Below are positions 34,283-64,000 of a DNA stretch of 64,000 nt, piece after piece. The stretch comes from Candidatus Omnitrophota bacterium (GTDB lineage: Bacteria; Omnitrophota; Gorgyraeia; Zapsychrales; Fredricksoniimonadaceae). The DNA is taken from positions 110,900 through 174,899 of the forward strand of contig CAJARJ010000021.1 in assembly GCA_903944345.1 (NCBI GenBank), read 5' to 3'. The notes beneath the pieces are model-generated. The model was not told the origin of the DNA and searched no databases. It saw nothing but the letters and a program-made list of their open reading frames with translations. Both the position numbers and the translations under genes were made by a program. Numbering within the stretch: position 1 is the stretch's first letter; each line of letters opens with the position of its first letter.

Positions 34283-35001
34283 AGCGGATTGACGGACGGG
34301 CTTATGATCAGTTGCGCCGGGTAACGGTGCAAAAGAATTATCTCAAACACGCCGAAGGTTCCTGTCTGATCGCTTTTGGTGAAACCCGTGTTGTTTGTTC
34401 TGCTTCGGTTGAAGAAGGCGTGCCTCCTTTTTTGAAGGGCAAGGGGCAGGGTTGGGTGACCGCCGAATATGGCATGTTGCCGCGTTCCTGCACCCAGCGG
34501 ATCAATCGCGAAAAGGGAGGGGGTTCGGGTCGCACCCAGGAGATTCAGCGCCTGGTTGGCCGGTCATTGCGCGCGGTGGTTGATATGAAGCTTCTGGGCG
34601 AGCGTACGGTAAAAATTGATTGCGATGTTATTCAGGGCGATGGTGGCACCCGGACAGCGTCTATTACCGGAGGGTACATTGCCTTGGCATTGGCTTTGCA
34701 GAAAATAAAAAAGAATGGCCTGATCAAGAATATTCCACTGACGGAACGGGTGGCGGCCATTAGTGTCGGCATAAAAGACGGCCAGGCTATGCTTGATCTT
34801 TGTTACGAGGAAGACAGCAAGGCGGATGTGGATATGAATGTCGTTATGGTTGGTGCAATGAATTTTGTGGAAGTGCAAGGAACGGCAGAGGGGCAATCTT
34901 TCTCAAAGAAAGACATGGATGCCATGCTGGCATTGGCGCAAAAAGGGATACGGGAACTTTTTGTTGTGCAGGACAAGGCTTTAAAAAGCAGCAAGCGCTG
35001 A
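34279..35001 (+). CDS. rph: ribonuclease PH
   Basis: RPIRVTVQ-like N-terminus, [12 protein letters not shown] motif, 240 aa. Overlaps the queF stop. Confidence 0.85.
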
Positions 35002-41077: not shown

Positions 41078-41151
41078 CGGGAAGTAGCGCAGCTGGCTAG
41101 CGCACTTGCTTTGGGAGCAAGGGGTCGAGGGTTCAAATCCCTCCTTCCCGA
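41078..41151 (+). tRNA. tRNA-Pro (anticodon TGG)
   Basis: Cloverleaf: acceptor CGGGAAG/CTTCCCG, anticodon stem CTTGC/GCAAG with loop TTTGGGA, T-loop GGTTCAAATCC. No encoded CCA. Confidence 0.85.
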
Positions 41152-42028: not shown

Positions 42029-44299
42029 ATGAAACGCGACCATTCCAAACTCATTTGTGATGTCAGCGAGATCGCCGGTGTTTTCACCAATACGGCTGAT
42101 CTGGGCGGTCTTCTGCAGAAGATTGTCGAGATGATCGCCGTGCATATGGACGCGGATGTTTGCTCGATTTATCTTTTTTATGAAGATTCACAGGAACTGG
42201 TTCTTAAAGCAACCTGCGGACTGGATTCTTCCTCGATCGGGCGCGTGAGCATGAAGATCGGCGACGGCCTGACCGGGGTGGCGCTCAGGGATTTGAGGCC
42301 AGTCTGCGAGGGGAATGCCGCCAGTCATCCCGACTACAGGCATTTTGAAGGAACCGGAGAAGAAAAATATCCTTCCTTCATGGCGGTGCCTATTCTGCGG
42401 GGCCGGGAGCGGATTGGCGTCATGACCTTGCAGAGCCGGCAGAAAGATTATTTCTCCGAGCCGGATGTTAACGTGTTTCGGGCTATCACGTCACAGTTAG
42501 CCACGACTGTCGAGATGGCCAATCTCCTGATTGCCATTGAACGTGCCCGCCCGGAGTCGCCCGGACGAGGAAAGGGTCCCGATATAAAATTTGTCAAAGG
42601 ACTGGTCGGCGCCGAGGGCTTGGCTGTCGGCGAGGCACTTGTCATTGCACGCAATTCACTGGACGAGTTGCTTGCCCGTCAGGTGCCCGGAGCAAGTACT
42701 CTGGAGGATTTTCGCCGCGCGGTTGCCGCGACCGAACAGGAACTTGAGCAGGTTCAGCAAGGCGTCGAAGAAAAGCTGGCCGATGTGGCTTCGCTTATTT
42801 TTTCAGCGCAGATTCTGATGCTTAAGGATCGATCCATGCTGGGCGCGATGGAAGAACTTGTCGGGCGGGGACTATCTCCGGCGGACGCGGTCAAAAGAGT
42901 TGTCAGCGATTATGTGAACCGCTTCGACCGGATGGGCAATGCCTATGTCCGCGAAAAGAAATATGACGTGCTTGATGTCGGCTTGCGTTTGCTGGATCAG
43001 CTGGCGGGAGAGGGTTCTTCCCGTGCCAGTTACGAAAGCAAGATTGTTATTGCCCGGGAACTGCTGCCTTCCGATATTTTGAAACTGAGTTCGCGCAATG
43101 TTGCCGGTGTGGTTCTGCTCTCCGGAGGTGTTACCTCCCACGCCGCGGTACTTTCCCGTTCGCTCAATATTCCGCTGGTTATTGCCGATGATGCCCGGTT
43201 GTTGTCGGTAGAACTGGGAACCAGGATGATTCTTGACGGGGCGCTTGGCAATATTTATGTGTCGCCTGACGACGAAACTCTTGGCCGTTTTCGCGAGAAA
43301 GAAGCCCTGCGCATAGAAGCGGCCAAAACTGCAGTACATCTGCGGGAAGAGACCTATACAACTGATGGAGTGCGGGTTCATCTGCTGGCCAATATCAATC
43401 TCTTGGGAGACTTGTCCGTGGCCCGCGACTACAAGGCGGAAGGGGTAGGCCTTTACCGGACAGAGTTTCCGTTTATGATCCGCAGCGACTTTCCCACCGA
43501 AGAGGAGCAGTTTGTGATCTACCGCCGTTTTGTTGAAAGCCTCAAGGGGCGGGAAATGACCTTTCGTACACTGGATATCGGCGGCGACAAGATGCTGTCG
43601 TATTATGATTACAGTAATGAAGCCAACCCTTTTCTGGGGATGCGTTCTATTCGTTTTTCGCTCAAGCATCTTGATATCTTTTCTCGTCAACTGCGGGCAA
43701 TTCTTCGGGCCGGGTTTGATAGCGAGATAAGGATTATGTTCCCCATGATCTCCTCGTTGGACGACTTTGACGCGGCCCGCGGCGTGGTTGCGGACTGTCT
43801 GGCCCAGCTGGGCCGGGAAGGCCGGCCTCATCAGAAGAATCCCCGGCTGGGGGTTATGATCGAGCTGCCTTCGGCGGTCGAGATAAGTGATGGTCTGGCT
43901 CGCGAGGCGGACTTTTTTTCTGTCGGGACAAACGACCTTATCCAGTACATGCTGGCCGTTGATCGTACCAACGAGAAAGTGGCCGATCTTTACCTGCCCT
44001 ATCATCCGTCAGTTCTAAGAGCACTTGGCCGCGTGGCCGAGGCGGCCTTGCGGCACAAGCGCGACATCTCGGTTTGCGGAGACATGGCTCACGACCCTCG
44101 GTATATTTTCTTTTTGCTGGGGCTGGGGATACGAAAGTTTAGCCTGGATGCGCGCTATCTGCCAAAAGTTCAGCAGGCTGTCATGTCTGCTTCCTGCCTG
44201 GAGGCTGCGGACTTTTCCCGTCGTGCACTTGCAGTCGGGCGGGTAGCGGAGGCCAAAAAATTGTTTGAGACCGGAATTTTGCGACAGGAGCGCGCATGA
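42029..44299 (+). CDS. ptsP: PEP-protein phosphotransferase PtsP (EI-Ntr) with N-terminal GAF domain
   Basis: GAF domain (DADVCSIYLFYEDSQELVLKAT). Phosphohistidine region GGVTSHAAVLSRSLNIPLVI. PEP-utilising C-terminal domain (LYRTEFPFM, GTNDLIQY). Confidence 0.8.
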   Translation: MKRDHSKLICDVSEIAGVFTNTADLGGLLQKIVEMIAVHMDADVCSIYLFYEDSQELVLKATCGLDSSSIGRVSMKIGDGLTGVALRDLRPVCEGNAASHPDYRHFEGTGEEKYPSFMAVPILRGRERIGVMTLQSRQKDYFSEPDVNVFRAITSQLATTVEMANLLIAIERARPESPGRGKGPDIKFVKGLVGAEGLAVGEALVIARNSLDELLARQVPGASTLEDFRRAVAATEQELEQVQQGVEEKLADVASLIFSAQILMLKDRSMLGAMEELVGRGLSPADAVKRVVSDYVNRFDRMGNAYVREKKYDVLDVGLRLLDQLAGEGSSRASYESKIVIARELLPSDILKLSSRNVAGVVLLSGGVTSHAAVLSRSLNIPLVIADDARLLSVELGTRMILDGALGNIYVSPDDETLGRFREKEALRIEAAKTAVHLREETYTTDGVRVHLLANINLLGDLSVARDYKAEGVGLYRTEFPFMIRSDFPTEEEQFVIYRRFVESLKGREMTFRTLDIGGDKMLSYYDYSNEANPFLGMRSIRFSLKHLDIFSRQLRAILRAGFDSEIRIMFPMISSLDDFDAARGVVADCLAQLGREGRPHQKNPRLGVMIELPSAVEISDGLAREADFFSVGTNDLIQYMLAVDRTNEKVADLYLPYHPSVLRALGRVAEAALRHKRDISVCGDMAHDPRYIFFLLGLGIRKFSLDARYLPKVQQAVMSASCLEAADFSRRALAVGRVAEAKKLFETGILRQERA

Positions 44300-45777
44300 A
44301 ATGTCCAAAGACTTATGAAGTGGATTTAAGCGCCATCGCTCGCGAAGCGGTGGCGCGGTATGGCTTTGCGGTCGGGTATTCGTCTTCGGTGATCAAGGAG
44401 GTAAAAGCCCTGAAAGAAAATTTTGTCATGGCTGACGAGAAGCGCGGACTGCGGGACCGGACCGACATTCTCTGGTCCTCGATTGATAATGTGGATTCTC
44501 TGGATTTGGATCAACTTGAATATTGCGAGCGTGGGCCCCGGGGGGAGATTCAGGTCAGTGTGGCTGTTGCGGACGTCGATTTGTTCGTTCCGCGTGGCAG
44601 CAAAACCGATCATCACGCGGCCGCCTGCGGGAACTCGGTCTATACCGGGATCGAAACTTTTCCCATGTTACCGGAACGGCTGTCAACCGATCTGTCCTCC
44701 CTGAGGGAAGGCGTTGACCGCCGTGCGATTGTGGTCGAGTTTGCCGTGCTTAAGAACGGGAATATCCGTCAGGGGGAGGTCTATCCTGCACTGGTTCGTA
44801 ACAAGGCCAAATTGATTTATGAAGAGATCGGCGCCTGGCTGGATGGGAAAACTGCTGTGCCCTCCAGAGTCGCGGCAGTTCCTGGGCTGGAAGATCAGCT
44901 TAGGTTGCAGGACGAAGCTGCTCGCAGGTTGAGGGATTTCCGGGTCGAGCAGGGCGCGCTTGAGCTGGAGAGTCTGGAGACCCGGGTGGTTAAAGAAAAC
45001 GGTACGATAGCCGCACTGGTTTTACCGCAGGATAACCCGGCCCAGCGGCTTATTGAAAATTTTATGATTGCGGCCAACCGTACGGTTATGGATCGTCTGG
45101 GCAAGGCGGGGATGCTGGTCATTCAGCGTATTGTGCGGATTCCCAAGAACTGGCCCGGGATCAGACAGCTGGCCGCGGAGTCACACGAGTTTCTGCCGGT
45201 CGAGCCAGACGTCAAGTCATTGTCGCTGTTCTTGCTCAAGCGTAAAAAGGCAGATCCGTCTTCTTTTGCCGATTTGTCTTTGACCGTTATCAAACTGTTG
45301 GGGCCGGGAGAGTACGAGCTGCTGGAGCCGGGTAAACCGCCGGTTGGGCATTTTGGCCTGGCCGTCACGGATTATACTCACGCCACCGCACCTAACCGCC
45401 GCTATGTGGATTTGGTCATCCAGCGCTTGATCAAGGCCGCCATTGCTGACCGTCCGTGTCCGTATTCCAGACGGGATCTTATTGAGCATGCGGCCTGGTG
45501 CACGGACCGGGACAAGGCGGCCAAGAAAGTGGAACGTTTTATGCGCAAAGTGGGCGCGGCTGTCCTGCTTGAGGGAAGAGTAGGCGACGAGTTCGAGGCG
45601 ATTGTGACCGGGGCTTCCGAAAAAGGTGTTTACGCCCGGCTGGTGTCGCCTGTTGTCGAGGGGCGTGTGGTGCGCGGAGGAGAGCGGATGGCGGTTGGAC
45701 AGAAAGTCCGGGTGCGTCTGGTCGATCTTGATCCGCGTCAAGGGCATATTGATCTGGTCAAAGTCAGGGAAACATGA
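44296..45777 (+). CDS. RNB-domain exoribonuclease (RNase II/R family, short form with C-terminal S1-like domain)
   Basis: RNB motifs DNVDSLDLDQ (motif I), VAVADV (motif II) and HFGLAVTDYTHATAPNRRYVDLVIQR (motif IV). Start overlaps the ptsP stop (ATGA). Confidence 0.75.
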   Translation: MKCPKTYEVDLSAIAREAVARYGFAVGYSSSVIKEVKALKENFVMADEKRGLRDRTDILWSSIDNVDSLDLDQLEYCERGPRGEIQVSVAVADVDLFVPRGSKTDHHAAACGNSVYTGIETFPMLPERLSTDLSSLREGVDRRAIVVEFAVLKNGNIRQGEVYPALVRNKAKLIYEEIGAWLDGKTAVPSRVAAVPGLEDQLRLQDEAARRLRDFRVEQGALELESLETRVVKENGTIAALVLPQDNPAQRLIENFMIAANRTVMDRLGKAGMLVIQRIVRIPKNWPGIRQLAAESHEFLPVEPDVKSLSLFLLKRKKADPSSFADLSLTVIKLLGPGEYELLEPGKPPVGHFGLAVTDYTHATAPNRRYVDLVIQRLIKAAIADRPCPYSRRDLIEHAAWCTDRDKAAKKVERFMRKVGAAVLLEGRVGDEFEAIVTGASEKGVYARLVSPVVEGRVVRGGERMAVGQKVRVRLVDLDPRQGHIDLVKVRET

Positions 45778-46517
45778 AAACAATACAGCGGCCGAATCGT
45801 TCAAGAATTATCCGGAATCCCGAGGGAGTTCGTGACCCCCTGGAGCTGAAAGACACTTTTGACTGCTTTCAGGTTGTTTCTGTCAGCAGGCAGGGCGCTT
45901 TTCTGGACTGGGGTTTTGAGGAAAATCTTTTTGTTCCTGCCGACCAGCAGCATGCCAGAATGGAGCGGGGGGAGTTTTATGTTGTCTATATTTCCAGTGA
46001 GCTTACCGGAGGACGAATGACCGGAACATCCTTTGTGGACCGGTGGTTATATGAGGAGTGTGCGCCGGATATCCAGCCAGGAGATGAAGTTGACCTGCTG
46101 GTGTGTGCCCGGACGGATCTTGGTTTCAAGGCAATAGTCAATAATACCTGTCTGGGGTTGCTGTATAAAAATGAAGTTTTCCGGACGCTGTCTTATGGCG
46201 AGCGGCTTAAAGGATTTTTGCGAACGATACGTCCTGACGGAAAAGCTGACCTTGCTCTGGCTCGCCAGGGTTATGACGATGTCGGCGGACTAGCCGGTCG
46301 CATTATGGCGCATCTGCAGGCCAGCGGAGGCAGCAGCCAGCTTAATGACAAAACTCCGGCGGAAGAGATTTATCGTTTGTTTGCGGTCAGCAAGAATAAA
46401 TTCAAGATGGCGCTCGGGCATCTTTATAAACGTCGGCTGGTTGTGATCGAAAACAACGGGGTTCGCTTGGTGTCCCAGGGCAATTCCGGGCGCAAGGCAC
46501 CGGGAGGGCGGGCATGA
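45774..46517 (+). CDS. S1-domain RNA-binding protein, CvfB/YitL-like
   Basis: Tandem S1-like beta-barrel segments and a C-terminal winged-helix-like tail; ~250 aa. Overlaps the RNB stop (ATGA). Confidence 0.45.
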   Translation: MKTIQRPNRSRIIRNPEGVRDPLELKDTFDCFQVVSVSRQGAFLDWGFEENLFVPADQQHARMERGEFYVVYISSELTGGRMTGTSFVDRWLYEECAPDIQPGDEVDLLVCARTDLGFKAIVNNTCLGLLYKNEVFRTLSYGERLKGFLRTIRPDGKADLALARQGYDDVGGLAGRIMAHLQASGGSSQLNDKTPAEEIYRLFAVSKNKFKMALGHLYKRRLVVIENNGVRLVSQGNSGRKAPGGRA

Positions 46518-46807
46518 TTACGAATAATGATGTGTTAAAAAAATTGCGGGTGGCCCTTAAACTGCGCGATTCGGACATTATCGAGATCTTGCGGCTGGCC
46601 GAGTTTGAAATTTCTCCCACCGAGTTGTCGGCTTTCTTTCGTCGGGAAGATCATGAGCATTATCGCCCGTGCGGTGACCAGATCCTCAGGCGTTTTTTAG
46701 ACGGGCTTATTGTCCGCAATCGCGGGAAGAAAGAAGCTTTGCAACCGCCGCAGAATGAAACGGTGTCGCAGTCTGGCGGGTTCGTACCAAAATCCGGAAG
46801 GGGGTGA
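46514..46807 (+). CDS. DUF1456 (YehS-like) domain protein
   Basis: NNDVLKKLRVALKLRDSDIIEIL...ELSAFFRRE matches the DUF1456 repeat. Overlaps the upstream stop (ATGA). Confidence 0.55.
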   Translation: MITNNDVLKKLRVALKLRDSDIIEILRLAEFEISPTELSAFFRREDHEHYRPCGDQILRRFLDGLIVRNRGKKEALQPPQNETVSQSGGFVPKSGRG

Positions 46808-46811
46808 GAAT

Positions 46812-46874
46812 ATGGGGAACAAGGACAAGGGTAAGGAAAAGAGCAAAAAGAAGCCAAAGGCTGACAAGAAATAA
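46812..46874 (+). CDS. candidate 20 aa lysine-rich microprotein (MGNKDKGKEKSKKKPKADKK)
   Basis: Strong SD GGAAGGGGGTGA 5-7 nt upstream of the ATG. Lies 4 nt after the previous stop, with a terminator immediately downstream. Not in the ORF track because it is under 60 aa. Confidence 0.3.
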   Translation: MGNKDKGKEKSKKKPKADKK

Positions 46875-46883
46875 TAGCAGCAG

Positions 46884-46930
46884 GCCGGCGTTGAAAAGGA
46901 AGTTATCTTTTCGGCGCCGGTTTTTTATTT
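46884..46930 (+). terminator. rho-independent terminator ending the ptsP-RNB operon
   Basis: CCGGCG ... CGCCGG stem followed by TTTTTTATTTT. Confidence 0.5.
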
Positions 46931-47113
46931 TCCCGGCGTCGCCAGGCAATGCTGACCAGAACGCACAGTGCGCCGAAGAAGAGCAGCAGAGCCAGTCTGG
47001 TGGCCAGGATGTAGGGGTGGTTGGCGGCGGAGATATTGCTCATCAGAATGATCGGTAACCATTCCTGCCAAAGCTATGCACCCAGAATAATGCTAAGTTG
47101 GGATCCCCATTTT

Positions 47114-47130
47114 TGGCGTGATTTTTGCAT
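47114..47130 (+). promoter_or_regulatory. sigma-54 (RpoN)-type promoter
   Basis: TGGCGTgatttTTGCAt has the GG and GC elements at exactly the canonical -24/-12 spacing. It lies ~170 nt upstream of the DUF350-like gene. Confidence 0.45.
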
Positions 47131-47297
47131 GACTGGATAATTATATGGGCACCGTTCGGGAATGCAAAATGAAATAACAAGGAAGGAAGTCTGCTGGACA
47201 GTCGGGTTTGTTTTAGTTAAGATTTTTTATAACAGCCCGAGCCCGTTGCGTAGAATTTTTCATGTCACAATGATAATTGTTAAAACAGGGGGAAGAG

Positions 47298-48092
47298 ATG
47301 TCAGAAGAAGAGTTTTATGTGCTGGCGGCCTCTTCTGTCGGTATTTTTCTTTTCTGGGTCCCCTGGATAAGAGACATCATGGTGATTTATGACCGCCGGG
47401 GCCGGTATGCCGGCATAGCGGCATTTTTTGCGCCTTTCTTTGCTCTGGGCATTCTTTTTCTTGTTCTCAGGAATTTTGCCTCCCTGGATGTCAGAAACAA
47501 TCCTGTTTATATTGTTTTCTATATGGCATTTGGTCTGGCCTGGTGCGGTCTTATGACAAAATGCTTTTCGTTTCTTGGTCTGGATTTCCGGCATGATGTC
47601 GCCGAGCAGGATAATTATGCGGCGGATGTGGCTATCAGCGGGGCAGTCCTCGGGAGTATGCTGTGTTTCTCCGGCGGCAACATTGGCGACGGGCCGGGTT
47701 GGTGGGTTGTGTTCTTTTGTGCGGCTGTGGCTACTGTCGTGTGGATGTTGGTTTGGGTTGTGATTGACCAGGTCAACGGAGTCTGTGAAGCAATTACGGT
47801 TGACCAGGATTTGGCAACGGGGGTCCGGTTCGCCGGATTTCTTGTCGCTTCGGGGCTGGTTTTCGGACGAGCTATGGCAGGCAACTGGGTGTCGGCTGCG
47901 GCTACATGGACAGACTTCTGGAGAGTGTCTGCGCCCCTGGGGGTTCTGGTTGTTGTTGCGCTTCTTCTGGACAGGCTTTTTTGCCTCTCGAAAGAAGTTC
48001 CCAGACAGAATGTTTTTGTGGCTGGTTTTCTCCCGGCGGGGATTTATATATTCTTGTCCGCTTATTATGTGTTGCGCCTGGGGGCATGGTAG
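47298..48092 (+). CDS. integral membrane protein with DUF350-like repeats
   Basis: About 8 hydrophobic helices. Segments EQDNYAADVAISGAVLG and DQDLATGVRFAGFLVASGL resemble the DUF350 (YjfL) motif. AGGGGGAAG SD before ATG 47298. Confidence 0.45.
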   Translation: MSEEEFYVLAASSVGIFLFWVPWIRDIMVIYDRRGRYAGIAAFFAPFFALGILFLVLRNFASLDVRNNPVYIVFYMAFGLAWCGLMTKCFSFLGLDFRHDVAEQDNYAADVAISGAVLGSMLCFSGGNIGDGPGWWVVFFCAAVATVVWMLVWVVIDQVNGVCEAITVDQDLATGVRFAGFLVASGLVFGRAMAGNWVSAAATWTDFWRVSAPLGVLVVVALLLDRLFCLSKEVPRQNVFVAGFLPAGIYIFLSAYYVLRLGAW

Positions 48093-49304
48093 GTGGAGGC
48101 GCTTGTTGCCGGAAGAGAGTTATCGATCGAGGATCGCTGCCGCATTCGTCGGCGAATGATGTTTGATCATTTTAAATGGGACCCGCAAAGTGGAGACCAG
48201 GATGTTCTGGCGGAATATCCTGTTATTCTGTCTGCGGACTTATGGGCTGAACTCAAGTGCAAGGCAGAGGCTTTGGCCGCCGAGCTTTATGCGGCTGAAA
48301 AGGAAATTCTTTGCAGGCCAGAACTTTTTTGTTCTCTGGGTATCCCTGATCCGATTATCAGGGCTATATCAGGGAGAAAAGCCTGTGGCGTGCTGAACCT
48401 GTCGAGATTTATGCGATTTGATTTTCATTTGACCCGCAGGGGCTGGATGATATCGGAAGTAAATGCGGACGTGCCCGGCGGGTTTATCGAAGCGTCGGCG
48501 CTGACGGAGTTAATGCTGGCATATTTTCCGGACTGTGTTTCTTCCGGTGACCCTTCCTTAAGGTTGGCGCAAAGCATCATGTCGAGGATTCCTGGCAAAG
48601 GGGCGCTGGCTTTTGTTCATGCAACGGCGTATGCGGATGACCGCCAGGTCATGGAGTTCCTTGGCAGGTACTTCAGGGATCGGGATTTCCGGGTGTTTTT
48701 CGCGGGCCCGCGGCATGTGCGCTGGCAGAAAGGCAAAGCCTCGCTCAGCGGGCCATTTGGCCCGGTTCCGCTGGATGCGGTGATACGCTTTTTCCCCGCC
48801 GAGTGGCTGATGAATTTACCGTGGTACAGCCGGTGGGAAGATTTCTTTGCCGGGGGAGAAACGTTACAGGTCAACCCTCCGGAGGCTCTGCTGGTGCAGA
48901 GCAAAAAATTCCCGCTTTTGTTCGATCGACTGCAAACTCCGTTGAATGCGTGGAAAACGCTTTGTCCTGCCGCCAGGGAGATTGCCGACGCGCCTCTCGA
49001 ATCCGGACACTGGGTGGTCAAGCCTGTTTTCAGCCGGGTAGGGGAAGGTCTTTTTATCCAGGGGGTGAGTGACCCGAAAGAAAACGTCAAGATATTAAAG
49101 GCGGCACGCCGCAACAGCCGATACTGGGTAGCGCAGGAACGGTTTGACGCGGTTCCTCTGGCTGTCGACGGAGTCGATAAGTATCTTTGTGTTGGTGTGT
49201 ATGTGATCGATCAGGCTGCTTGCGGGATTTATGGCCGGATCGCAGATCGGCCCCTGATCGATCACCGCGCAAAAGATGTTGCCGTGTTGATCAGAAAGGG
49301 TTAA
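48093..49304 (+). CDS. glutathionylspermidine-synthase-like ATP-grasp amidoligase (YgiC/YjfC family)
   Basis: Pre-ATP-grasp plus ATP-grasp pattern: LGIPDPIIRAIS...RFMRFDFHLTRRGWMISEVNADVPGG, compared with the E. coli YgiC RxDFa.dG...LLE.NADTPT. GTG start directly abuts the upstream stop. Confidence 0.6.
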   Translation: MEALVAGRELSIEDRCRIRRRMMFDHFKWDPQSGDQDVLAEYPVILSADLWAELKCKAEALAAELYAAEKEILCRPELFCSLGIPDPIIRAISGRKACGVLNLSRFMRFDFHLTRRGWMISEVNADVPGGFIEASALTELMLAYFPDCVSSGDPSLRLAQSIMSRIPGKGALAFVHATAYADDRQVMEFLGRYFRDRDFRVFFAGPRHVRWQKGKASLSGPFGPVPLDAVIRFFPAEWLMNLPWYSRWEDFFAGGETLQVNPPEALLVQSKKFPLLFDRLQTPLNAWKTLCPAAREIADAPLESGHWVVKPVFSRVGEGLFIQGVSDPKENVKILKAARRNSRYWVAQERFDAVPLAVDGVDKYLCVGVYVIDQAACGIYGRIADRPLIDHRAKDVAVLIRKG

Positions 49305-49306
49305 CT

Positions 49307-50080
49307 ATGGATGAACAACTGACTTACGGTGAGCAGCTGTTTGTGGACTGGGCTCCGGACGAGAGCGTGTGGACCCCGTGGGCCAAGCCGGTGCTGTTTA
49401 ACAGCCCGGCGTTGTCGAAAAAAGGACTTTTTAGTCCGTCTGCCGTAGAAGGCATACCGGAGCTGGAGACGTTTGCTAACCCGACTGGCCGGGTGGTTAT
49501 TGTTGATCTTCCCGGAGTCAATTCTGTCCGGGCGGCTGTTACGCTGGCCGGGTTGGGCTATCGACCGGTACCTTTATATAATGGCTGCGAAGGGCCGTCC
49601 GCGGTGATTCCTGTGCGGGAGTTGATGGACGCGGTTGAAGGGGCGACTGCACAGATTAAAGACAGAGGACTTTCATTCAACGCTCCGCCGGCGTTCCTGC
49701 TGGACAGCCGGAGAATGTCGGGGTTTCCTGCATTTGGAAATTTTGACAATCGCTGGCTGATTTTTCCACAGGATTTTCCCTCGGGTAATCTGCTTCTTTC
49801 AAAAGGGTTCAGCGAAGTTGTGCTGGTTTCCTTGCCGGACGGAGCGGTGCAGAAGGACTTGGCACATGTTCTTCTGCGCTGGAAAGAATCCGGGCTGGCG
49901 GTCAAATTTTTCTCTTTTGCCACTCAGGATGCGCTCCCGCTAAACGTTCCCCGGTCGGCGCAATATAAATTGTTTTTTTACCGGGCACTGGCCAAACTCG
50001 GCCTGCATCCAAACAGCGCCGGAGGATTCGGTGATGTGATTGCTACTCCCTCAGAAACATCCCACGGGGGTTACGGTTAA
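49307..50080 (+). CDS. hypothetical cytoplasmic protein (258 aa), third gene of the ATP-grasp cassette
   Basis: ATG 3 nt after the ATP-grasp stop. No TM or signal peptide. A Rossmann-like beta-alpha-beta start (RVVIVDLPGVNSVRAAVTLAGLGY) but no family could be assigned. Confidence 0.5.
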   Translation: MDEQLTYGEQLFVDWAPDESVWTPWAKPVLFNSPALSKKGLFSPSAVEGIPELETFANPTGRVVIVDLPGVNSVRAAVTLAGLGYRPVPLYNGCEGPSAVIPVRELMDAVEGATAQIKDRGLSFNAPPAFLLDSRRMSGFPAFGNFDNRWLIFPQDFPSGNLLLSKGFSEVVLVSLPDGAVQKDLAHVLLRWKESGLAVKFFSFATQDALPLNVPRSAQYKLFFYRALAKLGLHPNSAGGFGDVIATPSETSHGGYG

Positions 50081-50347
50081 TAAATTTCAATTACTGCTGT
50101 TTATGATTCTGGTGTGTGATATTTTGGTTTCGTTGTAAATAGGCGAAAAAACAACTTATTTGAATTTGTTTTTTGAAATTAGGGCAGGTTTTAAAAAAGA
50201 AAAAATTGTTGCTTTCAGCATGAAAATAGTTAAAGCTACTACTGTCAACTGTTTATGGTTTCTTTTGGGCTCTCACGCCCGGCGTTCGGCTTCGGCCAGA
50301 GTCCGTACTTACGTTCAGGGGCCGCATTAAGGCGAAAGGATTGGGGC

Positions 50348-51268
50348 ATGGCAGAGCATAAAGCAAGTTCTCTCCTTGATTCAAATGCCAATGAACTGGA
50401 AATCATAGAGTTTTCCATTAATAGCGCTCTTTACGGCATTAACGTGGCCAAAGTTCGCGAGATTATCAAGGCCGGGGTTGATTTCGTGCCGGTGCCTGAT
50501 GCTCCCGAGTCTATACGTGGGGCGATCAATCTCCGCGGGGCAATCATTCCGGTTGTTGATCTGGCCAAACATATCAAGATGGAGCCGGACATTGATCCTA
50601 AGCGCAGTCGGATAATTATTGCGGAGTTTAACCGGATCTGCCTGGGTTTTCTGGTTGGAGCGGTTTCTCGCATACATCGTATTTTCTGGAAATCTGTTGA
50701 AGTCCCCTCGCAGATGTTCCAGACGGGCGGGGGGTATGTCTCCGGTATTGTACGGGTCGAAGAAAAGGTTGTTTTTCTCCTGGATTTCGAGAAGATCGCG
50801 GTTCACATTAATCCGCATGCCAATATTCAGACTCCTCGCGCAGGCGAGTATGGTGCGGCAGGCTTTGACAGAGCCTCAAAGAAAATCCTTGTTGTGGATG
50901 ATTCGGATTTTACACGGCAGATGATTGTTCAGCATTTGCAGACGGCAGGATATCAGACAGAAACGGCAATCAACGGTGAAGAAGCGTGGTCGCTGTTGTC
51001 AGCGCTTAAAGGCCGGGAGGGTTTTGGCAGGGTCGCCCGGTTTTATCATTTGATGGTGACCGATATCGAGATGCCGCGTATGGACGGCTTGCACCTGATC
51101 CAGAAGATCAAGGAAGATCCGAAACTCAAGGAGCTGCCTTGCCTGGCGTTCTCGTCGATTATTTCCAGCGAAATTGTTCTTCAGTGCCGCAAGGTCGGGG
51201 CAGACGGAGAAATATCCAAGCCCGAAATAAGCCGGCTGGTTTCGCTGGTGGATTCCAAAGTGCTTTGA
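50348..51268 (+). CDS. cheV: chemotaxis protein CheV (CheW-like domain plus receiver domain)
   Basis: N-terminal CheW-like domain (LEIIEFSINSALYGINVAKVREI). C-terminal REC domain (ILVVDDSDFTR...MVTDIEMPRMDG...K). Confidence 0.75.
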   Translation: MAEHKASSLLDSNANELEIIEFSINSALYGINVAKVREIIKAGVDFVPVPDAPESIRGAINLRGAIIPVVDLAKHIKMEPDIDPKRSRIIIAEFNRICLGFLVGAVSRIHRIFWKSVEVPSQMFQTGGGYVSGIVRVEEKVVFLLDFEKIAVHINPHANIQTPRAGEYGAAGFDRASKKILVVDDSDFTRQMIVQHLQTAGYQTETAINGEEAWSLLSALKGREGFGRVARFYHLMVTDIEMPRMDGLHLIQKIKEDPKLKELPCLAFSSIISSEIVLQCRKVGADGEISKPEISRLVSLVDSKVL

Positions 51269-51322
51269 GGGGGTTGTGTTGGTAAAGAACGGCGGATTAA
51301 CCGAGGGAGATAAGGGGGTTGC

Positions 51323-53011
51323 ATGCTGGATAACATCAAATTGGGAGTGAAGCTTATCGGCGGGTTTGTTTTTGTCGCAGTGATTGCGGCGATTGTTGGT
51401 ATATTTGCCGTGTTCGGGCTTGCCGGCTTGATGGAAAAGACTGATCAGATTTCCAGGGTTGCTCTTCCTGCGGTTGAGCAGGTGGGCTCAATCAACTTCA
51501 ATATTATGGCGATCAAGGCGGGGATGCGGACTTTGAGTAATCCTGATATGAGTCAGGAGGATGTGCAGAAAGCCATCGAACTTATAGGTAAGCGGCGTTC
51601 AGCTTATCAGAAGTCAGACGAAGCCTATGCCAAGTTGACGAAGAATGCGGAAGAAGAGGCGGCTTACGCCGAGTTTAAGACAAAGCTGGGGGTTCTGCGC
51701 GAGAGCAATCTCAAGTTAACCGAAACGATCAAGACTGCTGCCGCTTTGCCCAAAGAGGATCCCAAAAGAGCAGAGCTTTATGCACAAGTTTATGCAATAA
51801 CGATGGGCGAGGCTAATGTTCAGAATGTTGAGGTTGAGAAAGCGCTGGAGAAGCTGGTCGACCTGGCTGGTCAGAAGGCAGCGCAGGCGGATGTGGATGC
51901 AGATAAGGCAATGGAAGCTTCCAACATGCTTATTGTTGTTATTACAATTATCGGCTTTATTCTGGCGGTGTTGGCTGGTCTTTATTTGACAGGCTCTATC
52001 ACCAGGCCGGTTGCCAGCAGTGTGGACGTTATGGGGCATATGGCAGAAGGGGATTTGACAAACCGTTTGCAGACCCAGCGTCAGGATGAACTGGGTGTTA
52101 TGGGAAGGGCGATGGATGCGTTTTCCGATAAATTGTCCGGTATTATTGCAGAGATCCGGGCTTCTGCAGAGCAATTGATGATGGCAACGGGAGAGGTTTC
52201 TTCCGCTTCCCAGCAGATTGCAGACGGCGCCCAGCAGCAGTCGGCCTCATTTGAAGAGCTGTCAAGTTCGGTTCAGGCCAACGCCGAGAATGTCAGAAAT
52301 GCCAACCAGATTGCCCAGAACGCTTCGGGTGATGCCCAGAAAGCCGGCCAGGCCATGGAAAGTAATGTCGAGGCCATGACCGGGATCGAAAAGGGGTCCA
52401 AGCAAATGGCGGAAGCCGTTGAGCTAATTACCGACATTGCTGACCAGACCAATCTGCTGGCATTAAATGCCGCCATTGAAGCCGCCCGTGCCGGAGAACA
52501 TGGAAAAGGCTTTGCAGTTGTTGCCGACGAGGTTCGCCAGCTGGCCGAACGTTCGGCGACATCGGCCAAGGAAATCCAGAATCTTATTAAAGCCAATCTG
52601 CGTCAGGTCGAGAATGGTGTAACCATCTCTAAAGAAGCCGGGGAGATGGTTCGCGGGATTACAGAAGGGATCAAGCAGATCGCAGAACAATTGCAGGCAG
52701 TGGCTAATGCGACACAGGAGCAGGCTGCAGCAATGGAGCAAAATACCTCGATCACGGAGTCCAATGCTTCTGCCTCCGAGCAGTTGGCGGCCTCGGCGGA
52801 GCAGATGTCGGCACAGGCAGAGTCGTTGCGCAACCTGGTGGCGCAGTTCAGAACACTGGATAGCGGGGCTTCGGCTTCGGCAGCAGTTCCGGCCAAAAAG
52901 GCCGCTGCAGGGCAGAAGAATCCTGTGGTCAAGCACTCTGTCAAGACGGTCAGAAAAGAGAATGGCGGGCATAAGAGCGATAAAGGTGACGAGCCTCTTC
53001 GCATTTCATAA
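51323..53011 (+). CDS. methyl-accepting chemotaxis protein (2 TM, periplasmic helical sensor, HAMP, MCP signalling domain)
   Basis: Highly conserved signalling hairpin [42 protein letters not shown] sits after TM2. Confidence 0.85.
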
Positions 53012-53109
53012 TTGCAGGCACCTGTTTTTGATCTCCCGGGGGGCTTCTCCCGGGAGATTTTTTTGCATAAGGATGTTTTGATAAAGACTCGTTACCGGAT
53101 GGAGGGCTC

Positions 53110-53943
53110 ATGCCAGAGAATGCCGAAGCGTTGGTAGAGCGTTCAGCAATCGACAAGGGCGGGATCAATGGCCTTATGGCCTTGTCCGGCGAGCTGGTGA
53201 TCATTCGTTCCCAGTATGTCAGGACGGAAAAGATGTTGCAGCAGGATCTTTTTCGGCAGAAAGAGTTGCTGCAGGGGGTGGGCGCGGCAAAAGTTCTTTT
53301 GAACGGCGCAATAAAAGATCCGGGTCGTTTCCAGAAAGCCGTTGTGGAGTTGGAGCAGTTGTTTAATTCTCTCGAATCTTTGGCCCGGCACGATACACTT
53401 GCCGTGCTTGTCCAGGGGATGGGACATACCACCGGCTCGCTGGAGAAAGCTTCTTCAGAATTGCAGTCCGGCATTGTAAAACTGCGGGCCGAAATCCTGG
53501 GCAGCGAAGCAGACGGTTCTTCGGCGATGGCGATTGTTCCCGCCTTGCTGGTTGTAGTAGGAGAAGAGATTTGCGCGTTTCCCTTGGCGTCTGTTACCGA
53601 AATCGTCAATGTTCCCAAGGAAGAAATTTATACAGTCGACGGGAACACGACCATGAAGTTGCGCGACCACGCGCTTTCATTAATCGAGCTTTCGCGAATT
53701 ATCCAGTTTAAAGCCAACAGCCAGGAAAATGATGCTCCGAGCCAGCGGGTGGTGGTTATTACTGATGGCAAAGAGCGGCTGGGTGTTGTTGTTGACAGGC
53801 TTCTGGGGAAAGACGAGATTGTGTTTAAAGCGCTCACCAGTCATTTTTCGAATGTGAGGGGCATTGTTGGCGCCTCCATTCTTGCCGACGGAAACGTTGC
53901 GCTCATACTCGATCCTGCGGCCATCATGCAACAGTCCCAATAA
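53110..53943 (+). CDS. CheW-like domain protein with a ~110 aa N-terminal extension
   Basis: C-terminal CheW fold (EEICAFPLASVTEIVNVPKEEIYTVDG...LGVVVDRLLGKDEIVFK). The N-terminal helical region is unassigned. Confidence 0.6.
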   Translation: MPENAEALVERSAIDKGGINGLMALSGELVIIRSQYVRTEKMLQQDLFRQKELLQGVGAAKVLLNGAIKDPGRFQKAVVELEQLFNSLESLARHDTLAVLVQGMGHTTGSLEKASSELQSGIVKLRAEILGSEADGSSAMAIVPALLVVVGEEICAFPLASVTEIVNVPKEEIYTVDGNTTMKLRDHALSLIELSRIIQFKANSQENDAPSQRVVVITDGKERLGVVVDRLLGKDEIVFKALTSHFSNVRGIVGASILADGNVALILDPAAIMQQSQ

Positions 53944-58009: not shown

Positions 58010-58083
58010 GTCCCTGTAGCTCAGTTGGATAGAGCAACAGCCTTCTAAGCTGTGGGTCGTGCGTTCGATTCGCGCCAGGGACG
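58010..58083 (+). tRNA. tRNA-Arg (anticodon TCT)
   Basis: Acceptor GTCCCTG/CAGGGAC, D-arm GCTCAGTTGGATAGAGC, anticodon loop CTTCTAA, T-loop TTCGATT. Confidence 0.8.
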
Positions 58084-59179: not shown

Positions 59180-59256
59180 GGTGGCTATAGCTCAGTTGGT
59201 AGAGCCCTAGATTGTGGTTCTAGTTGTCGCGGGTTCAAATCCCGTTAGCCACCCCA
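59180..59256 (+). tRNA. tRNA-His (anticodon GTG), with G-1 and encoded CCA
   Basis: Extra 5' G, acceptor GTGGCTA/TAGCCAC, anticodon loop TTGTGGT, T-loop TTCAAAT, 3' CCCA. Confidence 0.8.
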
Positions 59257-62684: not shown

Positions 62685-64000
62685 TGAGTACGGAGCAGGT
62701 CTCTTCAGCAACTGTGCAAGAATGGCGTCCCCGTGCCAATCCGTGGTGGATCTGCGCTGCGGTCATGCTGGCAACGATCATTGAAGTGTTGGATACGACC
62801 ATTGCCTCGGTGTCTGTCCCGAATATCGCCGGGAACCTAGGGGTCACGAATCATGAGGGGACTTGGGTCATCACCAGTTATCTGGTGGCTAATGCGATCT
62901 TGTTACCGGCCACCGCTTGGCTGGGAAGTTTTTTCGGTCGGAAACGCCTTTTGTTGATTTGCATCTTTATTTTCACGCTAGCTTCGGTCATGTGCGGACT
63001 GGCCAACAGTTTTGGTTTTCTGCTTGTTGCCAGAGTATTGCAGGGTTTCGGCGGTGCCGCTTTGCCGCCGCTGGCTCAGGCTATCCTTATGGAAAGCTTC
63101 CCCAAGGAGAAACGCGGGATGGCCATGGCTGTCTATATAACAGGACTTGTTATGGCGCCCATTCTTGGTCCAATTCTCGGCGGGTGGCTGACAGATAATT
63201 TTTCTTGGCGCTGGATCTTTCTGATCAATATCCCGATCGGGGCATTGGCATTATTTATGGCCAATGTGTTTGTAGAAGATCCGCCGTATCTCAAAAAAGG
63301 CAATGCCTCGAGTATTGATTATGTCGGGTTCTGTTTGATGGCTCTTGGGCTGGCGGTGCTGGAGATCATTCTGGATAAAGGACAGACTGAGGACTGGTTT
63401 CAAGCGACATGGATATGCTGGTCTGCTGTTACTGTGGTTGTTTCCCTGACATCATTTGTGATATGGGAATTACGTCAAAAGCATCCGGTGGTTGACTTGC
63501 GGGTTTTCAGGGACAGAAATTTTTTCTCAGGGCAGATCATTACATTTCTTCTCGGGGCGATTATGTACGGGGCGATAACCGTGATCCCGTTATTTTTTCA
63601 GACATTGATGGGGTATACAGCTTATTTAAGCGGAGTGGCACAACTGTCCCTCGGGTTGGGGATGTTTCTTGGATCGATGGTCGTTGGAGTATTAATGGGC
63701 AAAGTAGACGGACGGTTGTTCTTGCTGGCCGGATTGTTGCTGATCTGTGCCGGGTGTGGATGGATCGCGGCGACGATCAATCCGGGAATAGGTATGGAGC
63801 ATATAGCGTTGCCCTTTTGCGTTCTTGGGATGGGAATATGCGTGGCTTTTGTCCCTTTGACGACGTTAGCCCTGGGGATGCTCCGCAATGAAGATATGGG
63901 AAACGGGTCAGGTATTTTTAATTTGATGCGGAATATCGGCGGGAGTGCCGGTATCGCTCTGGTTACCACGGTCATTGCACGTATGGGACAAGTGCATCAG
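62684..64000 (+). CDS. MFS drug efflux transporter, DHA2 (EmrB/QacA) family, 3'-partial
   Basis: Open to the window edge. MFS motif A GWLGSFFGRKRLLL and 14-TM-type organisation. Start overlaps the EmrA stop (TAATG). Confidence 0.75.
   Translation, partial: MSTEQVSSATVQEWRPRANPWWICAAVMLATIIEVLDTTIASVSVPNIAGNLGVTNHEGTWVITSYLVANAILLPATAWLGSFFGRKRLLLICIFIFTLASVMCGLANSFGFLLVARVLQGFGGAALPPLAQAILMESFPKEKRGMAMAVYITGLVMAPILGPILGGWLTDNFSWRWIFLINIPIGALALFMANVFVEDPPYLKKGNASSIDYVGFCLMALGLAVLEIILDKGQTEDWFQATWICWSAVTVVVSLTSFVIWELRQKHPVVDLRVFRDRNFFSGQIITFLLGAIMYGAITVIPLFFQTLMGYTAYLSGVAQLSLGLGMFLGSMVVGVLMGKVDGRLFLLAGLLLICAGCGWIAATINPGIGMEHIALPFCVLGMGICVAFVPLTTLALGMLRNEDMGNGSGIFNLMRNIGGSAGIALVTTVIARMGQVHQ

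Follow-up and report, generated by a model that had tools for sequence, protein, structure and literature searches.

A cassette of three genes on the plus strand of a Candidatus Omnitrophota contig (CAJARJ010000021.1, assembly GCA_903944345.1) forms a single self-contained, translationally coupled module, in which a protein that we call X is the obligate partner of a subfamily of predicted ATP-grasp ligases. We analysed the cassette within the 64,000-nt stretch of DNA that contains it (positions 110,900 to 174,899 of the contig; hereafter the window, whose own numbering is used throughout). The first gene, g1, encodes a predicted DUF350 membrane protein, the second, g2, a predicted ligase related to glutathionylspermidine synthetase (GspS), and the third, g3, encodes X. 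The reading that we prefer, and to which we assign a probability of about 45%, is that g2 would join a polyamine-type amine in amide linkage to the C-terminal glycine of X, on the cytoplasmic side of the membrane.

A translationally coupled module found across phyla

An earlier note on this DNA had described three tightly packed genes, and the open reading frame (ORF) coordinates confirm gaps of 0 nt between g1 and g2 and of 2 nt between g2 and g3. Gene g1 occupies 47298-48092 (ATG at 47298, stop TAG at 48090-48092, 264 aa), g2 occupies 48093-49304 (GTG at 48093, stop TAA at 49302-49304, 403 aa) and g3 occupies 49307-50080 (ATG at 49307, stop TAA at 50078-50080, 257 aa, the 258 aa given earlier having counted the stop codon), all on the plus strand. 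A purine-rich, Shine-Dalgarno-like run precedes each start codon, that of g1 being GGGGGAAGAG at 47288-47297. Public annotations differ over the start of g2, which is placed either at GTG 48093 (403 aa) or at ATG 48159 (381-382 aa). Because R19 and F24, which are coded upstream of ATG 48159, are conserved in an alignment of 39 g2 orthologues, as the N-terminal 22 aa of g2 are overall, we take GTG 48093, directly abutting the g1 stop, as the start. Exactly three genes lie between a hairpin at 46882-46923 and the CheV gene beyond g3, and their G+C content resembles that of the flanking DNA, giving no signature of horizontal transfer.

The same three genes travel together over a wide phylogenetic range. 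A scan of one genome per species matched 368 species, with lineages including Acidobacteriota, Planctomycetota, Verrucomicrobiota, Gemmatimonadota, Nostoc, Firmicutes, Fibrobacterota and Polyangia, and the trio was found in at least eight phyla. In tblastn searches, g1 and g2 stood directly upstream of g3, in the same order, in 80 of 80 loci with enough upstream DNA, locus L058 excepted, where g1 and g3 are followed by an inverted but still adjacent g2. A second rearranged locus, L117, has g2 and g3 together with g1 about 1.2 kb further on, such that in both cases the three genes remain together despite their changed order. The earlier note had staked its proposal on co-conservation of the genes, and the trio is indeed kept in the loci of 80 species. 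The junctions are also characteristic, with a 4-nt overlap (ATGA or GTGA) between g1 and g2 in most loci and a spacing of commonly -4, -1 or -23 nt between g2 and g3; the dominance of 4-nt overlaps implies translational coupling. The linkage of g1, g2 and g3 is far above chance.

The flanking genes, on the other hand, vary by lineage. When 1552 flanking ORFs from about 150 loci were clustered, no flanking family appeared in more than nine loci, so that neither a fourth conserved gene nor a polyamine-biosynthesis neighbour recurs, and the same holds for envelope-biosynthesis genes. It could still be argued that the adjacency is incidental, or that the cassette is anti-phage defence or mobile-element cargo, as its patchy phyletic spread and the transposase and toxin-antitoxin genes close to one locus (L003) would suggest. 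We consider this very improbable, given the universal linkage of the trio, a base composition that matches the flanks and the lack of recurring defence or mobility genes among the same loci. A search of all three proteins against the PADLOC defence models returned zero matches at E ≤ 0.1, which speaks against a known defence system.

A stand-alone ligase with an intact catalytic set

The middle gene had been assigned to the GspS-like family of the YgiC/YjfC type, and this assignment stands. Both of the Pfam comparisons that the earlier note had proposed, with PF03738 for g2 and PF03994 for g1, gave scores above the curated thresholds, with g2 reaching 66.9 bits against GSP_synth (cut-off 29.3) over residues 43-396. 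A search of the PDB with the single g2 sequence found no solved relative, while a profile built from the 39 orthologues matched YgiC (7uk8) over nearly its full length with an E value of 1.9e-8, and the synthetase half of the Escherichia coli bifunctional enzyme GspSA (2io7) with an E value of 1.2e-4. Invariant across the 39 orthologues are R108, D110, E122, N124, K271, K310 and R382. The first four align with GspS R316, D318, E330 and N332, and K310 aligns with K533; we infer that K271 and R382 are the equivalents of the second family lysine and the C-terminal arginine. In the Leishmania trypanothione synthetase, the same Arg/Asp/Glu/Asn set, two lysines and one arginine are strictly conserved, the Asp, Glu and Asn bind Mg2+, and the Arg positions glutathione by its glycine carboxylate. 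Phosphorylation turns this carboxylate into an acyl phosphate, with which a spermidine amine then reacts (PMC2427367).

GSP_synth is the sole domain in the 403 aa of g2, and since the N-terminal CHAP amidase domain is absent, g2 belongs to the stand-alone YgiC/YjfC type. Taken together, its sequence identifies g2 as a GspS/YgiC-type ATP-grasp carboxylate-amine ligase with intact catalytic residues and a predicted activity. The chemistry of such ligases had been called uncharacterised in the earlier note, along with their substrate. For the chemistry this no longer applies, as YgiC and YjfC are credited with ligating peptides to spermidine (Pederick et al. 2023, cited in PMC11762307) and carry the product name peptide-spermidine ligase in RefSeq; for the physiological substrate it still does. 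The two enzymes are further described as making no glutathionylspermidine (Sui et al. 2012, cited in PMC12506659). By analogy with YgiC and YjfC, the use of glutathione by g2 is unlikely.

A doubled DUF350 protein precedes the ligase

The first gene had been described as a polytopic membrane protein with DUF350-like repeats, and profile comparison bears this out, with g1 matching PF03994 in two stretches at 32.7 bits against a cut-off of 26. Hydropathy and an alignment of 66 sequences give about eight hydrophobic segments, corresponding to about eight transmembrane (TM) helices in a doubled form, with two DUF350-like repeats of the pattern E/D-x-N/D-x-A...G. The alignment also brings out the conserved motifs ASxDVR, E-R-x-N-x-AA, GGNIGDGPGWW and T-I-D-R-D. 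We assign g1, from these features, to the polytopic membrane proteins of the DUF350/YjfL family. In a comparison of PspA systems, YjfL/DUF350 proteins with either four or eight TM helices were found to adjoin spermidine-synthase-like and GspS-like genes (bioRxiv 10.1101/2020.09.24.301986).

X is a large protein family with a constrained C-terminal tail

Searches of g3 against Pfam and NCBIfam matched no family. The earlier note had considered the third protein a novel, unassignable soluble product, of which the soluble alpha/beta character and the lack of an assigned family stand, but not the picture of an orphan. Its homologues number 2121 at 90% clustering and form 1823 clusters at 50% identity, 1250 of which match at E ≤ 1e-10. 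The sequence of X matches members from other phyla with E values of 1e-54 to 1e-90, and no Pfam domain was found among the homologues. The alignment has 27 invariant columns and is marked by the motifs WAP..W..W.KP, DLPG, RPVPLYN, PPAFLLD..R, DNRW, QDFPS, DL.H and GGFG, all of which are present in g3. By these criteria X is a predicted cytoplasmic protein of a large unnamed family.

An AlphaFold2 model of X, computed from 40 sequences, has a mean predicted local distance difference test score (pLDDT) of 85 and a predicted template modelling score (pTM) of 0.85. It consists of a Trp-rich N-terminal segment, an alpha/beta domain of five to six strands and a tail that is disordered from about residue 233. 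The model upholds the alpha/beta character of this protein, whose start had been described as Rossmann-like in the earlier note, and the fold search returned no PDB neighbour of the domain. The invariant polar residues K28, D68, R87, N93, D134, R137, D148-N-R-W151, D157 and D185 suggest a ligand-binding or catalytic site. We considered whether X could be a Ser-His-Asp hydrolase of the SGNH-like kind, built from S160 and D185-x-x-H188, and rejected this, as S160 and H188 are lost in the two-gene variant described below and no hydrolase fold was found.

The tail of X, residues 233-257 (ending ...HPNSAGGFGDVIATPSETSHGGYG-COOH), is coded at 50003-50077 (+). Within this segment, whose pLDDT is below 50, G240-G-F-G243 is invariant and the C-terminus follows 9-19 residues on, giving the overall pattern RRNSAGGFG-x(9-19)-G[FYW]G-COOH. 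Of 120 close homologues, 104 end in Gly. In a more diverse set of 146 representatives, all but one end in Gly (123), Ser (13) or Ala (9), and 48% of the set have F, Y or W at the penultimate position. Ahead of the tail lies a helix with the consensus FRxxWYRALALxGLRR, which looks amphipathic. We propose that the tail may serve as a recognition element or as an acyl-donor end. The collected loci contain 1228 ORFs that are 200 aa or longer, of which 142 have GG[FY]G in their last 35 aa together with a terminal Gly, a motif that was defined post hoc, after the data had been seen. Of these, 140 are X homologues, and the remaining two are the E. coli proteins YgiB and YjfM.

A two-gene variant dispenses with the DUF350 protein

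About 35 metagenome loci (L128 and L130-L168; for example L140, 2926-5622) have g2 followed by a longer X of 420-500 aa, without g1. In this variant, X combines the X domain with four TM helices and a long Arg/Gly/Tyr tail that ends in GGGFGG. The tail has no Asp or Glu at all, and its terminal Gly is for that reason its sole carboxylate. We asked whether the four-helix block could be a fused DUF350 domain, and this proved not to be the case (no Pfam match; hhalign probability 0.2%). Because the variant X has its own four TM helices and no accompanying DUF350 protein, it follows that X works at the membrane, with an intrinsic anchor replacing DUF350.

Relation to the yjf and ygi operons and to GspSA

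The cassette resembles the E. coli operon yjfIJKLMC, for which a membrane/polyamine theme has been proposed, in that both join a DUF350 protein (YjfL in E. coli) and a stand-alone GspS-like ligase (YjfC) in one operon with a third protein that bears a C-terminal tail of the form RGG[FY]G...G-COOH (YjfM, of the DUF1190 family). The differences are nevertheless considerable. PspA (YjfJ), DUF2170, DUF2491 and DUF1190 are all absent from the cassette, with family searches finding no DUF2491, PspA or DUF2170 among its three genes; the DUF350 protein is doubled, with about eight TM helices; the gene order is DUF350, ligase, partner; the tailed partner is a cytoplasmic alpha/beta protein, as opposed to a lipoprotein in yjf; and g2 is so divergent that the single-sequence search of the PDB missed its relatives. 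The second E. coli system, ygiBC of the tolC operon, comprises no more than a ligase and a partner with a GGFG...GG tail and is in this respect analogous to the two-gene variant, although the ygi partner is a DUF1190 protein with a lipoprotein signal, lacks the X domain and is linked to tolC.

GspSA and trypanothione synthetase belong to the same ATP-grasp family as g2 and share its Arg/Asp/Glu/Asn/Lys catalytic set, and their chemistry, in which a glycine alpha-carboxylate is converted to an acyl phosphate and then to a spermidine amide, may be attributed to g2 by family. The likeness to GspSA is at the profile level, and g2 differs from it in having no CHAP amidase domain. In sum, sequence comparison makes the cassette ligase a distant member of the GspS/YgiC/YjfC family and the cassette a sister system, distinct from the yjf and ygi operon types and from GspSA. 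A literature search, which did not reach Pederick et al. 2023 or Iyer et al. 2009, brought up no mention of the X family or of either architecture, with three genes or with two; the cassette or the idea of the tail may be mentioned in those two papers.

The earlier note had set the cassette apart from the E. coli type by its lack of a DUF1190 or DUF2491 partner. Profile searches confirm this absence, with neither g3 nor the X tail matching DUF1190 (PF06693) even at E ≤ 10, but the two types are not fully unlike, as the tail ending GGFG...G-COOH is shared with YgiB and YjfM. The C-terminus of YjfM (L170, 10388-11026; E. coli K-12 yjfM) reads ...SRGGYGRSSSARGHWGG, and both it and YgiB (L169, 2745-3416; E. 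coli K-12 ygiB) end in a conserved RGG[FY]G...G or RGG[FY]G...GG tail. The two are paralogues of 24% identity whose alignment ends on the tail block, and conservation across 34 full-length YjfM orthologues, the most distant at 44% identity, is highest in the last 17 residues. Searches with YjfM and YgiB gave Enterobacterales matches only, so the conservation of the DUF1190 tail is that of two paralogues 24% identical and of YjfM orthologues at least 44% identical. The failure of the DUF1190 hidden Markov model (HMM) to match the X tail can be put down to the shortness of the motif. As the motif is post hoc and the HMM is unmatched, the likeness between the X and DUF1190 tails is one of motif, from which we claim no homology.

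A proposed C-terminal modification and its alternatives

In the mechanism that we prefer, g2 would act like GspS, trypanothione synthetase and YgiC/YjfC in using ATP and Mg2+ to phosphorylate a terminal carboxylate, and an amine, most likely a polyamine, would attack the resulting acyl phosphate to form an amide. The carboxylate donor would be the free C-terminal glycine of the disordered tail of X, making X the dedicated protein substrate of the ligase, and X would thereby gain a cationic group, amide-linked at its C-terminus. The reaction would take place at the inner face of the membrane, to which X could be tethered either by the DUF350 protein, where there are three genes, or by its own four TM helices, where there are two. 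The alpha/beta domain of X, in which Asp, Arg and Trp residues are invariant, may be the part that binds the amine or that reads out the modification. By analogy with the yjf operon and PspA-linked operons, the module probably has a role in envelope or polyamine homeostasis.

An analogy can be drawn with other ATP-grasp enzymes. RimK, which acts on ribosomal protein S6, and the tubulin tyrosine ligase (TTL) family modify the C-terminal tails of proteins, and RimK is encoded apart from its substrate. The proposed system would be analogous in that the target of the ATP-grasp enzyme is a dedicated protein substrate, modified on its disordered C-terminal tail, while RimK and TTL belong to a different ATP-grasp clade, add amino acids instead of polyamines and have no membrane partner.

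Several points weigh against this mechanism. The weightiest concerns the E. coli relatives: YgiB and YjfM carry lipoprotein signals and have no convincing second TM segment, their hydropathy being too weak for a second helix that would place the tails in the cytoplasm. Their tails are therefore probably periplasmic and would lie beyond the reach of a cytoplasmic ligase unless modified before export. The likeness of the X tails to these proteins is in any case that of a short motif recognised after the fact, which the DUF1190 HMM does not detect, and the shared motif could be a binding element instead. That the tail enters the active site of g2 is something we infer from sequence, and the identity of the amine is drawn solely from family precedent. 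Lastly, the domain of X is highly conserved and has many polar residues that are invariant, as would be expected of an enzyme or a ligand binder more than of a passive substrate.

The last point leads to the main alternative, in which the ligase makes a small peptide- or amino-acid-polyamine conjugate, as GspS does with glutathione, while X supplies, binds or hydrolyses the metabolite in the manner of the GspSA amidase half, the DUF350 protein exports or senses the product, and the tail is only a docking or membrane-targeting element. We regard this as a credible possibility, held tentatively. The characterised relatives of g2 all act on small substrates in vitro, the invariant polar residues of X (K28 to D185) are typical of a catalytic or ligand site, their Asp/Trp-rich pattern would fit the binding of a cation or polyamine, and the periplasmic topology of DUF1190 argues against the tails as universal substrates. 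Against this, X has no recognisable hydrolase or transferase fold, and the S160/H188 pair that hydrolysis might use is not conserved in the two-gene variant. A small-molecule product would also leave two features of the tail unexplained, namely the restriction of its last residue to Gly, Ala or Ser (99% of members) and its survival despite the insertion of four TM helices.

A further alternative is that X serves as an adaptor, its tail recruiting the ligase, and that the ligase modifies another membrane target. This target could be the DUF350 protein, at a residue or a terminus, or else the amine of a lipid head group or an envelope precursor. That the three genes are strictly linked and translationally coupled suggests a stoichiometric complex, and the membrane tether of X in the two-gene variant and the seemingly amphipathic helix ahead of the tail also favour such a role. 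But the two-gene variant and ygiBC operate without a DUF350 protein, for which reason DUF350 cannot be the universal substrate, and nothing points to a lipid or envelope substrate, with no envelope-biosynthesis genes recurring nearby. We consider this alternative improbable.

If X is modified at its C-terminal glycine, the module would exemplify a type of post-translational modification new to bacteria and located at the membrane, and three families of unknown function would gain roles. The chemistry of the cassette itself is not strange: for YgiC/YjfC-type ligases the in vitro reaction, joining a peptide and spermidine, is known, and the X tail would supply a candidate physiological substrate. 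The sole constant companions of the ligase are the DUF350 protein, in the three-gene form, and a partner with a constrained, glycine-ended tail, and the cassette constitutes a large and phylogenetically broad sister system, with at least 1250 protein clusters and 368 species in one scan. A bolder extension, which we think rather unlikely, would be a widespread modification of bacterial protein C-termini in which a GspS-like enzyme activates the C-terminal glycine of its partner as an acyl phosphate and joins it to an amine, which could be that of a polyamine, of a lipid head group or of a lysine (the invariant K28 in X itself, for instance). The outcome would be ubiquitin-like without E1-type adenylation, and YgiB and YjfM would be the natural substrates of YgiC and YjfC. 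Should X not be modified in this way, the cassette is still a new obligate three-protein module, and X merits definition as a family.

The upstream region and the question of RpoN control

The earlier note had placed the cassette behind a near-consensus sigma-54 promoter and under RpoN control, of which the motif and its spacing stand, while the control has no support past the motif match. A minus-strand mini-ORF and g1 are separated by a spacer of 255 nt, and within it, at 47114-47129 (+), lies a putative sigma-54-like -24/-12 element, TGGCGTGATTTTTGCA, some 170 nt ahead of the g1 start codon. Read as TGGCGTG-ATTT-TTGCA, it has the canonical GG-N10-GC geometry and a -12 region of TTGCA. Such motifs occur in the window at about the frequency expected by chance, with three matches to TGGC-N7-TTGCW against 2.0 expected, and 12 matches to the extended sigma-54 consensus with up to two mismatches against 10.8 expected. 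The other two TGGC-N7-TTGCW matches lie at 34685-34700 and 63726-63741 (+).

Transcription of the cassette from an RpoN-dependent promoter at 47114-47129, in response to a signal through an enhancer-binding protein, would be favoured by the exact GG/GC spacing and the TTGCA of the element, by its intergenic position on the correct strand ahead of g1, by a terminator that shields the cassette from upstream transcription and by the nearby gene for a PtsP protein (EI-Ntr-like). We nevertheless find it doubtful. Besides the chance-level counts, no palindromic activator site was found upstream of TGGCGTGATTTTTGCA, and sigma-70-like hexamer pairs at 47195-47223 and 47229-47256 lie nearer to g1. No sigma-54-like motif was present in any of 94 non-redundant cassettes of other lineages, searched up to 320 nt upstream of g1, and the existence of cassettes in the cyanobacterium Nostoc counts against general RpoN control. 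Phylogenetic footprinting is uninformative here, since the spacer with its element is 100% identical in five sister contigs; the next-nearest relatives have at most 46-64% protein identity and no usable upstream DNA, and identity did not exceed 46% for any relative in the metagenome scan. Given the chance frequency of the motif, its absence from the 94 other cassettes and the identity of the sister spacers, RpoN control is at most a lineage-specific possibility.

The terminator-like boundary is the G+C-rich hairpin at 46882-46923, which is flanked on either side by T/A runs; a terminator scan gave it 18 base pairs, including 8 GC pairs, and it was also found as an inverted repeat. From its sequence it parts the cassette from a PtsP/RNB/CvfB/DUF1456 operon. 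A riboswitch or other known RNA was also considered for the leader of about 160 nt, and Rfam gave no match. No terminator was predicted after g3, and because the spacer there is AT-rich and has no predicted terminator, read-through from the cassette into the chemotaxis cluster downstream is possible.

Neighbouring genes

Upstream of the hairpin, four plus-strand genes at 42029-46807 encode a PtsP-like GAF/PEP-utilising enzyme, an RNB/RNase II-like protein, a CvfB-like S1/winged-helix protein and a DUF1456 protein. They follow one another with 4-nt overlaps, which suggests one operon ending at the hairpin. Between the DUF1456 gene and the hairpin, at 46812-46874 (+), a Lys-rich mini-ORF of 20 aa (MGNKDKGKEKSKKKPKADKK) has a strong Shine-Dalgarno sequence. 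On the minus strand, at 46905-47042, a hydrophobic mini-ORF of 45 aa (MSNISAANHPYILATRLALLLFFGALCVLVSIAWRRRENKKPAPKR) is divergent from the cassette and ends inside the hairpin, which is bidirectional; one public gene call at this site is instead a 55-aa ORF on the plus strand (L172, 1585-1752). Downstream, some 170-270 nt past g3, the chemotaxis cluster at 50255-53943 (+) encodes a CheV-like protein (CheW plus REC), a methyl-accepting chemotaxis protein and CheW. An Rfam scan placed three tRNA genes in the window, at 41078-41151, 58010-58083 and 59181-59253, all on the plus strand.

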